From IMG/VR virus record IMGVR_UViG_3300046171_000197: 64,000 bases of DNA; one strand, written 5' to 3'. The position numbers and the translations under genes are program-made. This document shows positions 3,335 through 28,183 of the stretch, piece by piece. Numbering within the stretch: the first letter of the stretch is position 1; each line of letters opens with the position of its first letter. Below the pieces are notes generated by a model, which saw only the letters and a list, made by a program, of their open reading frames with translations, ran no database searches and had not been told where the DNA came from. The DNA is from a virus.

Positions 3335-3490
3335 GTGAGGGTTTCCTCACCATTAGAAAGGACTCGAAAAAATCGTAACCCTAACTACAAACTGCTCCCA
3401 ACCAAGACCTCTGTAGGCAGTATAATACCTCGTCTTTCATATCCAGTAGTGAGGGATTACTGGAAATAAATATCGCATCTTCCCTGATGC
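3335..3490 (+). ncRNA. Structured psbA 5' leader (PhotoRC-II-like candidate)
   Basis: Hairpins GTGAGG-GTTT-CCTCAC (3335-3350), TCCAGTAGT-GAGGG-ATTACTGGA (3442-3464) and GCATC-TTCCCT-GATGC (3475-3490). The last two loops are complementary. The Rfam family assignment is from memory only. Confidence 0.5.
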
Positions 3491-10650: not shown

Positions 10651-11181
10651 ATGTCGAGATTAAGAGCAAATCAAATAACAAATGAGAATGCCAACGGTGC
10701 ACCTAATTTTCCGCATGGTATAACTGTCACTGGTATTGTCACTGCGACTAACAATCAAACAACATTCAGTAATATTGTTGTTGGTTCAGCAGTCACTGCA
10801 AATTCACAAGGTATAGATGTCACTGGTATTGTAACTGCAACATCATTTAAAGGTAGTGGTGCAAACCTAACTGGTATTGATGCAACATCATTAAAGGATG
10901 GAAGTGGTAATGTTATTGTACAAGCATCTGCAAGTGCTGTATCTGTCACTGCTGGTAAGCATTTAAATCCTGCAACAACTAATACAACAGACTTAGGAAC
11001 TTCTTCTTTAAGATGGAGAAACTTATATACTCAAGATTTACAGTTATCTAATGAATCAAGTGGTGGTAATAATGTGGATGGAACTTGGGGTGACTGGACT
11101 TTACAAGAGGGTGAAAATGATATCTTTATGATAAATAATCGTAATGGTAAAAAATACAAAATCAATCTAACGGAGGTATAA
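10651..11181 (+). CDS. Short tail-fibre module
   Basis: GIVTATSFKGSGANLTG hinge; C-terminal WGDWTLQEGENDIFMIN. Confidence 0.75.
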   Translation: MSRLRANQITNENANGAPNFPHGITVTGIVTATNNQTTFSNIVVGSAVTANSQGIDVTGIVTATSFKGSGANLTGIDATSLKDGSGNVIVQASASAVSVTAGKHLNPATTNTTDLGTSSLRWRNLYTQDLQLSNESSGGNNVDGTWGDWTLQEGENDIFMINNRNGKKYKINLTEV

Positions 11182-24424: not shown

Positions 24425-24654
24425 ATAAATTAGTAAATGGAAAATTAGTAACCGTTTCCTCTGAAGAAGAATCTCTAATAGCTTCTGAAGAAGCAAAAGT
24501 TCTATCTGATGATGCTATTAATGGTTACAAACGAAAAAGAGCAAAAGAATATCCCTCAACAGAGGAACAATTAGATTACATCTATCATAATGGTATAGAT
24601 AAATGGAAAACTGATATTGTTGATCCAATAAAGAATAAGTATCCAAAACCATGA
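24421..24654 (+). CDS. Putative fibre chaperone
   Basis: YKRKRAKEYPSTEEQLDYIYH..IK.KYPKP. Confidence 0.65.
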   Translation: MNKLVNGKLVTVSSEEESLIASEEAKVLSDDAINGYKRKRAKEYPSTEEQLDYIYHNGIDKWKTDIVDPIKNKYPKP

Positions 24655-25854
24655 GCACATTAAAAGTAGACGCAATAAGACACAATAGTGCAACGAGTGA
24701 TGCAATCACAACAGCAGCAGATGGAACTTGCACTGCAAAATTAACTTCGATAGGAGGAGGTGGACTTTCTCATCGCAATATTTTCATTAACGGAGCCATG
24801 ACTGTGGCCCAACGTGGAACGTCGTCAACTACAAATGGATATGGTAGTGTTGACAGGTATTATATAGGTAATAGTGGTGTAGATGAAGCACCAACACATG
24901 CACAGGCAGACATCTCTGCTGGAACAACACCTTATACATTAGGTTTTAGAAAATCTTTAAAAATAACTAATGGAAATCAAACAAGTGGGGCTGGTGCAGC
25001 AGATTACATTTTTATTAACATGCCACATGAGGCACAGAATTTAGCACAATCTGGTTGGAATTATAAATCAAGTTCTTCTTTTATTACTTTATCTTTCTGG
25101 ATAAAATCAAGTGTTGCACAAAACTTCTTTTTTCAATTTGATGTAAGAGATGGAACACGAACAAAACTATGCAATGGAAACAGGATCTTTAACTGCTGAT
25201 ACTTGGACGAAGATAACAAAAGTGATTCCTGGTAATTCTAATCTCACTATTGATAATAATACTGGAGTTGGTGCATATGTTACTTTTGGTGTTTTTTGGG
25301 AACAAATTACACAGCAAGTATGTCTCTAGAAACTTGGGGTGCGGCTAGTGATGCGAGTAAAACACCAGATAATACTTCAACTTGGTACACAACAAACGAT
25401 GCAACCTTAGAAATTTACTGGTATTCAGTTAGAAGCTGGATCTATAGCCACCTCGTTCGAGCACCGTAGCTTTGGTGAGGAACTCTCGTTGTGTTATCGC
25501 TACTATTACAAACTAGGTAAGTTGGATTATATTAGTCAACATATGTCTGCTGGAGAACAATATTGTATAGGTATGTCTGATAATGATGATGTTAACATAT
25601 ATGGAATGATAAATTTTCCAGTATTCATGAGAACTCCACCAACAGGGATAGATCAAGCAGGAAGTGCTGGTAATTATCGAGTTAGACGAGACACAACACA
25701 AACTTGCACTGGTGTTCCAACTTTTATTGATGCAGCACATCATTATTGTAGAGTCAATTTTCCTAAATCAAGTCATGGTTGGGGAACTGGACAAATGTTA
25801 TGGTGTCAATCTGGTGGTTCAGGTAGTTACTTAGGATTTTCCGCAGAACTATAG
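24651..25854 (+). CDS. Tail fibre with a carbohydrate-binding-like domain, reconstructed across about three indels (~25150, ~25298, ~25415)
   Basis: Colinear with 18306..19715 once frames are switched: QNYAMETGSLTADTWTKITKVIPG..PDNTSTWYTT..TGIQLEAG..FEHRSFGEELSLCYRY. Confidence 0.7.
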
Positions 25855-25855
25855 C

Positions 25856-25884
25856 TTGACAAGTATCAAAAAATACTTTATAAT
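25856..25884 (+). promoter_or_regulatory. Consensus sigma70 promoter with a GTA-N8-TAC (NtcA-type) palindrome in its spacer
   Basis: TTGACA (25856-61), 17-nt spacer, TATAAT (25879-84). The spacer contains AAGTATcaaaaaATACTT. Confidence 0.75.
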
Positions 25885-25889
25885 AGAAA

Positions 25890-25988
25890 AGTCTTTAGCA
25901 TCCTTGTAGATTTGGGACTAGAGATACTTCCCTGTGGTGGGGGAAGTGTGTTGGTGGTAACACAAAGGGAGGGTTTCCTCCCTTTTTT
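25890..25988 (+). ncRNA. Candidate ~100-nt small RNA with two GUGGU-loop hairpins and its own terminator
   Basis: No ORF between promoter and terminator; three hairpins plus the AAGGGAGG-GTTT-CCTCCCTT-T4 terminator. Confidence 0.65.
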
Positions 25989-26024
25989 ATTTTTATAAAT
26001 CATTATTTAAGGCTAACAACAAAC

Positions 26025-26267
26025 ATGAATTTCACTGTGTTTTCTAAGGATGGATGTTCATATTGCGAGAAGGTAAAAAAGGTATTAGAGTTGACAAGTA
26101 GTAAGTTTGTGGTGTATACTTTAGGTGAACACTTTGATGAAAAAGCATTTATTGAAGAATTTGGATATGATACTACATTCCCACAGGTTGTGTGTGATGG
26201 TAAAAAACTAGGAGGTACAGTTGAAACAGTTAAGTTCCTCAGAGAACAAAAAATCATCTCCGTCTGA
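26025..26267 (+). CDS. Glutaredoxin
   Basis: SKDGCSYC CxxC motif and TFPQV cis-Pro motif. Confidence 0.9.
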   Translation: MNFTVFSKDGCSYCEKVKKVLELTSSKFVVYTLGEHFDEKAFIEEFGYDTTFPQVVCDGKKLGGTVETVKFLREQKIISV

Positions 26268-27752: not shown

Positions 27753-27984
27753 CGTTCATCCAAATGTTAGAAGTTGCATTGCTATCTTCACTACTCACAC
27801 AACATGTTCTTGGACATTGGACAATGACATGTCAAGAGTGGAACCAAAATCGGGCAGAGATTCTCAGTGATGATAATCACATACCTGATGCTAAAGAGTA
27901 TCTTATAGATTACTTTTATAGCAAAGTAGAAGATAAGAATTGTAAACCTTACACATTAGGACGCAAGTAAGCCGACTCGGAACG
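27753..27984 (+). ncRNA. Glutamine-II (Downstream-peptide)-like aptamer 1 with an ORF in its P2 loop; variant 3' core
   Basis: 5' half CGTTCATCC (27753-61); 3' half GGACGCAAGTAAGCCGACTCGGAACG (27959-84). P1 is CGTTC/GAACG; P2 is TCCAAATGT/ACATTAGGA (8 of 9 pairs). Confidence 0.7.
27764..27970 (+). CDS. 68-aa microprotein nested in aptamer 1
   Basis: Hydrophobic N-terminus and two Cys; ATG in the P2 stem, TAA inside the aptamer 3' core. Confidence 0.7.
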   Translation: MLEVALLSSLLTQHVLGHWTMTCQEWNQNRAEILSDDNHIPDAKEYLIDYFYSKVEDKNCKPYTLGRK

Positions 27985-27988
27985 GGTT

Positions 27989-28183
27989 CGTTCATCCTTA
28001 TGTACCAAATTCTTCTTAGTCTAATAGTGATTGGAGCACCACTTGATTGTGAGACTGCTTCTGAACTAATAGATTCTGCAAGTAACAATCCTAATAAATC
28101 TGAGCAATTGGAAATAGTAAGGGTTGTGGTCGCACATACTGATCCAGTATGTTTTAAGGACGCAAAAGCCGACTGAAGGAACG
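27989..28183 (+). ncRNA. Glutamine-II (Downstream-peptide)-like aptamer 2 with an ORF in its P2 loop
   Basis: 5' half CGTTCATCC (27989-97); 3' half GGACGCAAAAGCCGACTGAAGGAACG (28158-83). P2 is TCCTTA/TAAGGA. A DUF4278-like ORF follows. Confidence 0.8.
28000..28176 (+). CDS. 58-aa microprotein nested in aptamer 2, not in the ORF track
   Basis: MYQILLSLIVIGAPLDCETASELIDSASNNPNKSEQLEIVRVVVAHTDPVCFKDAKAD; the TGA is within the conserved GACTGAAG. Confidence 0.7.
   Translation: MYQILLSLIVIGAPLDCETASELIDSASNNPNKSEQLEIVRVVVAHTDPVCFKDAKAD

Follow-up and report, generated by a model that had tools for sequence, protein, structure and literature searches.

Between tail-fibre-like genes and the glutaredoxin gene nrdC, a T4-like cyanophage genome carries a short unit with a promoter and a terminator of its own that appears to encode no protein. 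Is this unit a stand-alone small RNA gene, and what would its RNA bind? We addressed both questions in a window of 64,000 nucleotides (the whole stretch of DNA analysed, which is part of that genome) and in related loci of other phages. Downstream of the unit lie nrdC and genes for thymidylate synthase, phoH and an exonuclease. The tail-fibre-like region upstream (24651-25854) contains three open reading frames (24651-25199, 25150-25329 and 25489-25854), which may represent fragments of a single gene broken by frameshifts, or an assembly error. A PhotoRC-II RNA (3382-3477, 63 bits) is located upstream of psbA, both near 3.4-4.6 kb, and the psbA of the window is closest to that of high-light Prochlorococcus (97%), which suggests, without proving it, that the phage infects a high-light Prochlorococcus.

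Promoter, fold and terminator of the unit

The unit consists of a promoter (25856-25884) and an RNA on the plus strand from about 25891 to 25988, that is, some 98 nt of transcript, or roughly 100 nt. The promoter, described as perfect in the initial annotation, matches the sigma-70-type (early) consensus TTGACA-N17-TATAAT at 12 of 12 positions with a spacer of 17 nt, and is the single such occurrence on both strands of the 64 kb (0.07 expected). An intrinsic terminator hairpin with a U tract occupies 25964-25988, in agreement with the strong terminator noted before. The GC content of the unit is 46%, compared with 39% upstream, 19% downstream and 35% in the window, so the unit is indeed richer in GC than its flanks. 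No open reading frame of at least 45 amino acids overlaps the unit; a 41-codon frame on the minus strand and a 28-codon frame starting with TTG cross it, and both are unlikely to be coding because the homologues carry single-base insertions and deletions throughout.

The enclosed strand folds at z = -4.3 relative to shuffled sequences. The 5' stem that had been drawn at 25890-25919 does fold, but runs over 25891-25925: this hairpin, P1, begins at the inferred transcription start, contains a small internal loop and an apical loop at 25903-25913 with the family consensus Y-G-Y-R-N-N-U-Y-Y, and abuts a second hairpin, P2, at 25926-25947. P2 displays the hexaloop GUGGUG (site 1, 25934-25939; predicted probability of being unpaired 0.995), of which UGGUG (25935-25939) is the complement of the tRNA end CACCA-3'. 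A second UGGUG (site 2) follows at 25952-25956. The two hairpins initially placed at 25925-25948 and 25947-25964 fold in the window phage, but as drawn they overlap at 25947-25948, and the second of them, P3 (25948-25963), which encloses site 2, is found in the clade of the window phage only.

Conservation of the RNA among cyanomyoviruses

A homologue search with covariation analysis yielded 117 distinct marine and freshwater elements, collected from loci fetched via nrdC and from pattern scans of viral and metagenome contigs; the loci fetched via nrdC alone are unbiased towards the motif. The unit is found upstream of nrdC in 50 of 123 distinct nrdC loci. Among cultured phages, S-SRM01, which infects the freshwater Synechococcus KCZYC6, is the only carrier, with the unit at about 10975-11077 of MW015081. 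A blastn search of cultured phages with the window unit returned nothing, and a freshwater variant as query returned S-SRM01 only. No homologue was detected in the 151 picocyanobacterial genomes searched, where one 28-bit match lacked the motifs and looked like chance. The homologues are 91-119 nt long (mean 100). The promoter is kept in 108/114, with a variable spacer and 4-6 nt from the -10 box to the first paired base, and the terminator in 107/112, the exceptions being mostly partial duplicates.

Helix pairing was scored on an alignment of 49 sequences. Paired cells amounted to 90.8% and 99.5% in P1, 98.3% in P2 and 91.5% in the terminator, and all three helices showed many two-sided changes (at 5 of the 7 pairs in P2), with compensatory and G-U changes on the plus strand. 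Shuffled and slid control alignments scored well below the real helices, with the shuffle test inflated by the relatedness of the sequences. In contrast to the 91-99.5% of the other helices, only 58.5% of the P3 cells were paired. From these alignments, P3 is a clade-specific hairpin and no feature of the family.

The loop of P2 reads GUGGUG in every intact copy, including the intact homologues found via nrdC alone, and its closing pair varies among U-G, G-U, A-U and U-A. Site 2 reads UGGU in 116/117 homologues, UGGUG in 111/117 and GUGGU in 97/117, and is mostly single-stranded in the predicted folds of the family. The earlier picture of twin GUGGU loops is therefore retained for the hexaloop of P2 but not for site 2, whose hairpin is not conserved. 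Judged by the alignment, the motifs common to the family are the GUGGUG hexaloop and a second UGGU(G), and UGGU is the common denominator of the two sites. The triplet in the P1 loop is GUA in 108, GUG in 7 and GCA in 2 of the 117; two relaxed scans for other triplets gave one chance match, with patterns strict enough to miss P2 of the S-SRM01 type. The spacing from loop 1 to loop 2 is 28-30 nt in 113/117, the linker between P1 and P2 is 0-1 nt in 94/98, and P1 and P2 together have 18-20 bp in 84/98, which suggests that the two hairpins form a stacked rod of fixed length.

Several loci depart from this pattern. A short variant (L628:385-466 and L630) consists of P1, a single UGGU and the terminator behind an intact promoter, and apparently arose by deletion between two GGUGG repeats. 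Upstream of nrdC at one locus (L590), the terminator comes directly after the promoter, which looks like a loss of the RNA between two TATAAT repeats. Decayed or partial second copies that lack the promoter, site 2 or the terminator occur at L610:99-200, L499, L552 and L522; in the L610 copy, both the GUGGUG loop and the -35 box are gone. An internal GAGGUGA resembling an anti-Shine-Dalgarno sequence was dismissed as a family feature, being confined to the freshwater majority of the homologues.

Could the unit work as DNA, with a promoter, sites of the Chi or operator type, and a terminator shielding nrdC from the variable tail-fibre region? The sequence GNTGGTGG resembles a Chi site, and in 58/117 homologues an extended -10 element (TGnTATAAT) overlaps site 2 in the 3' linker, an overlap that could be a partial cause of the conservation of site 2. 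However, the compensatory, strand-specific changes from C-G to U-G in P1 and P2 need a folded RNA of the plus strand, and an NtcA-like box in the promoter spacer is present in 11/108 promoters only. We consider a unit without RNA function very improbable. Taken together, the comparisons show, at the level of sequence and predicted structure, a family of conserved, structured RNA genes in cyanomyoviruses, equipped with their own promoter and terminator and absent from Rfam.

Relation of the RNA to nrdC

The usual downstream neighbour of the unit is nrdC (26025-26267, plus strand), and the RNA could instead act in cis, as an attenuator or as a T-box-like leader governing read-through into this gene. 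nrdC is found downstream in the great majority of cases, even for units found by sequence pattern alone, and among the 75 loci without the RNA, 20 have a sigma-70 promoter immediately ahead of nrdC. In addition, the 5' arm of P2 can pair with the 5' arm of the terminator, one possible antiterminator. This pairing, however, showed no covariation (-7.5 kcal/mol for own versus -7.3 kcal/mol for crossed arms, permutation p = 0.17); P2 is the stronger helix (-11 kcal/mol), and truncated transcripts still fold P1 and P2, with no switch in the predicted folds. Glutaredoxin is also no amino-acid gene.

Furthermore, nrdC has promoters of its own. A T4-type late promoter (TATAAAT, 25994-26000, plus strand) lies 3' of the terminator and outside the RNA; such a promoter precedes nrdC in 48/48 RNA-bearing versus 45/75 RNA-less loci. 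A sigma-70 promoter lies inside the nrdC coding sequence (26091-26120, plus strand) in 108/123 loci, namely 48/48 with and 60/75 without the RNA; at this position the protein alternates between Tyr-Thr and Tyr-Asn, each of which gives a valid -10 box. The RNA is patchily distributed over the nrdC tree (14 changes, with at least 7 gains or losses forced), and the unit is intact before other, unrelated genes that have their own promoters at L100, L126, L537 and L542. Because of the promoters of nrdC, the patchy distribution, the persistence before unrelated genes and the lack of antiterminator covariation, the best reading is an early RNA that stands alone, as first proposed, and sequence comparison supports it: the unit is very probably transcribed as a discrete early RNA. 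A role in cis is possible given the tight link to nrdC, and we regard the attenuator as improbable.

Comparison with known RNA families

Rfam searches (gathering and E-value thresholds) with the window and five divergent homologues returned chance matches only, and the initial annotation had likewise failed to place the RNA in a family. The best match, SraC/RyeA, was rejected (26 bits against a cut-off of 37, resting mainly on the terminator). Two tandem elements further downstream in the window (27754-27984 and 27986-28181), with a small open reading frame (27764-27970 and 28000-28176) between the halves of each, also gave nothing in Rfam; they resemble split glutamine riboswitches, with CGTTCATCC on the 5' side and GCCGAC..GGAACG on the 3' side. 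The non-coding RNAs PhotoRC-II, manA, glnA, abiF-like and CfrI have been described in cyanomyoviruses (PMC9964418). The new RNA had no Rfam match to those of them that Rfam contains; CfrI adjoins psbA, and the new RNA is set apart from it by location only. Fremin et al. 2023 list 10,006 viral candidate RNAs (PMC10690425), and the new RNA may already be among these computational candidates. A literature search that left most subscription papers outside its reach turned up neither an account of this RNA nor one of pairing between wcaG and tRNA.

The new RNA shares with CsrB, RsmY and RsmZ that it stands alone and repeats short motifs on hairpins. Unlike them, it has two sites only, and its loops (GUGGUG and YGYRNNUYY) carry GGU, not GGA. 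CsrA (PF02599) was found in none of the five genomes searched (3 host and 2 phage), in which controls were detected. Membership of the Csr/Rsm class, whose logic the initial annotation had offered as one of two options, was thus rejected, and what is left of that suggestion is a generic protein sponge.

Many homologues read GGUGGUA, like the T-box core. As in T-boxes, a UGGN that can pair with the NCCA of a tRNA, here by sequence complement only, precedes an intrinsic terminator, and the upstream loop possibly holds a codon-like triplet. Nevertheless, a T-box (RF00230) was rejected: no covariance-model match was obtained, and P1 has 35 nt, without a long Stem I or specifier loop. The K-turn and elbow platform of T-boxes are absent as well. 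While the T-box antiterminator competes with the terminator and the T-box specifier matches the regulated amino-acid gene, the new RNA gave no antiterminator signal, appears to act in trans and carries a GUA, GUG or GCA triplet before a glutaredoxin gene. No T-box was found in the hosts searched.

The reminiscence of the cyanophage wcaG motif noted earlier holds at the level of the motif but not for the covariance model or the hairpins. Both RNAs occur in T4-like cyanophages and in marine and freshwater metagenomes, have about 100 nt, are followed by a terminator and contain two UGGYG motifs (UGGUG at 25935-25939 and 25952-25956 in the new RNA). For membership of wcaG (RF01761) we set a threshold of at least 42 bits with the wcaG covariance model. 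Positions 25700-26100 gave no match to this model at E<=10, and neither the matching IMG/VR contig (95 kb, about half complete) nor the five divergent homologues gave one; conversely, the new-RNA model R1 had no match in wcaG arrays. The layout of wcaG, with three hairpins and a GUUUC-led hairpin immediately 5' of each UGGYG, is absent from the new RNA. The wcaG motifs lie 3' of the hairpins and extend into tRNA-specific complements, whereas the new RNA presents one motif in a hexaloop and has a generic match. Finally, wcaG lies upstream of sugar-nucleotide/exopolysaccharide or high-light-inducible genes, and the new RNA lies upstream of nrdC in most loci. Identity with wcaG was rejected, as the model fails in both directions and hairpins and neighbours differ.

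wcaG arrays and the 3' ends of host tRNAs

The resemblance to wcaG is nonetheless the most useful clue, because the UGGYG motifs of wcaG complement tRNA 3' ends. Pairing of UGGN with NCCA is established for T-box riboswitches (PMC4695836). We extracted the tRNAs of Prochlorococcus MIT9302 (n=37) and Synechococcus RCC307 (n=41), added CCA, and compared 106 wcaG arrays with them. ACCA ends 21/37 tRNAs in MIT9302 and 21/41 in RCC307, and CACCA ends 18/37 in the Prochlorococcus. In wcaG, the complementarity of the UGGYG motifs to host tRNA ends extends to 8-15 nt: 12-15 nt for Leu(CAG), up to 11-12 for Pro(CGG), 8-9 for Ala and 8 for Arg(CCG). The N of the wcaG motif follows the discriminator base (U for A73, C for G73), and wherever the acceptor stem contains a G-U pair, the complement tracks the 3' strand rather than the 5' strand (Ala 8 versus 6, Arg 8 versus 5). 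The match is to mature tRNA, because CCA is not encoded in the majority of these host tRNA genes.

The summed match of four wcaG units, chosen post hoc, was 40, versus 29.5 +/- 2.3 for column-shuffled decoys of tRNA ends (p = 0.00025); the Leu unit was in the search pattern and also equals the Rfam consensus. When all UGG types of the wcaG arrays were pooled, the test was not significant (p = 0.26). When the wcaG RNA of S-SRM01 was co-folded with the 41 host tRNAs, Ala(GGC), Leu(CAG) and Arg(CCG) ranked as the top three. The target tRNAs read GC-rich codons (CUG, CCG, CGG), and the phage-encoded Leu, Pro and Arg tRNAs escape long wcaG matches. The wcaG RNAs are modular arrays (L374:2405-2525 in S-SRM01, L375 and L377-L496) that reach upstream of the Rfam model, often neighbour tRNA genes of the phage and in most cases finish with a terminator. 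Four complete phage genomes were examined, all of them carriers of the new RNA, and each has tRNA genes together with a unit that is wcaG or wcaG-like.

A tRNA-end model for the new RNA

Since UGGUG complements CACCA, tRNA 3' ends are our best guess for the ligand of the new RNA, a tentative identification that we hold at slightly less than an even chance. In this model, host sigma-70 polymerase would produce a discrete early RNA of about 98 nt with stacked P1 and P2, a short linker and the terminator. UGGU(G), exposed twice, would pair with the ACCA-3' end that is free in uncharged tRNAs, much as T-boxes do through their UGGN bulge, and the RNA would act in trans by sequestering or shielding tRNA ends during infection. 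Less firmly, host sensing of uncharged tRNA might be blunted or the tRNA pool rebalanced, and the P1 loop might in addition engage the anticodon of tRNA-Val(UAC).

The complement in the new RNA is 4-5 nt per site, or 7 nt with UGGUGGG if P2 opens; the last two bases of UGGUGGG, which differ in 8/117 homologues, belong to the P2 stem. A motif this short cannot by itself identify the ligand. The N of UGGN is invariant in the new family, and the transfer from wcaG is by analogy only, because the architectures differ. Co-folding of two freshwater homologues with tRNA gave about -5 kcal/mol, compared with about -1 to 0 without CCA, and placed the tRNA ACCA on site 2 of one of them; the predicted preference for tRNAs ending in ACCA is small (about 0.8 kcal/mol). 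For the window variant, predicted tRNA binding is about zero in a calculation that excludes loop pairing, because P3 hides site 2.

With a match of 4-7 nt, a protein-sequestering RNA stays a serious rival. With two (G)UGGU(G) sites held by a rigid scaffold, it would titrate a dimeric RNA-binding protein of the host or phage, following Csr-like logic with another protein. Short repeated motifs exposed on covarying stems fit this reading, and Weinberg et al. 2010 tentatively proposed that a dimeric protein recognises the twin UGGYG of wcaG (PMC2864571). The invariant first G of the hexaloop, which would lie beyond the tRNA 3' end, is also unexplained by tRNA pairing. Yet no candidate protein emerged (CsrA was found in none of the five genomes searched), the two sites stand in different structural contexts, the short L628/L630 variant keeps a single site, and the motif shared with wcaG extends there into tRNA-specific complements. 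On balance, we consider the sponge possible but rather doubtful.

The sites might also pair with host mRNAs containing ACCAC or CACCA. A promoter, a terminator and an exposed linker of its own are typical of antisense small RNAs, and ACCAC occurs at the psbA start in several Cyanobium, Synechococcus and low-light Prochlorococcus genes. However, the stretch that is invariant across the family is 4-6 nt, short for a seed, and the psbA of high-light Prochlorococcus, closest to the phage psbA, does not have ACCAC at its start. The earlier proposal of a seed against ACCAC gained no positive support, and an antisense role is quite unlikely.

A more specific form of pairing with tRNA ends is a clamp on tRNA-Val(UAC), in which the P1 loop would sit on the anticodon and the GUGGUG loop on the CACCA end, held apart by the P1+P2 rod. 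The loop-1 sequence CUUGUA complements 6 nt of the anticodon arm of tRNA-Val(UAC), the best of 37 tRNAs, and this tRNA ends in CCCACCA; GUA to GUG is a wobble change. The span from anticodon to CCA in a tRNA is about 75 angstrom, and a rod of 18-20 bp plus loops is near that. GCA variants would then read Ala(UGC). As a match of 5-6 nt to some anticodon loop is likely by chance, we regard the clamp as an unlikely, if concrete, model.

Implications for cyanophage biology

With this RNA, a widespread group of aquatic viruses gains a further conserved non-coding gene, for which S-SRM01 is a cultured carrier. It may be, at a chance somewhat below even, that cyanophages have a class of RNAs that base-pair with host tRNA 3' ends and that the new RNA belongs to it. 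In such a class, the new RNA would be a minimal two-point clamp, and the wcaG arrays would be the multi-unit version directed at tRNAs for GC-rich host codons. If tRNA ends are the ligand, phages would manipulate the host tRNA pool via RNA, rather than by nucleases or spare tRNA genes, a strategy for which our literature search found no report. The same search found no reported ligand for wcaG, a riboswitch candidate since 2010; that motif would gain a specific test, with named tRNAs and base pairs. Since the wcaG targets are tRNAs for GC-rich codons and the Leu, Pro and Arg tRNAs of the phages escape the long matches, this pattern suggests a route to host shut-off.
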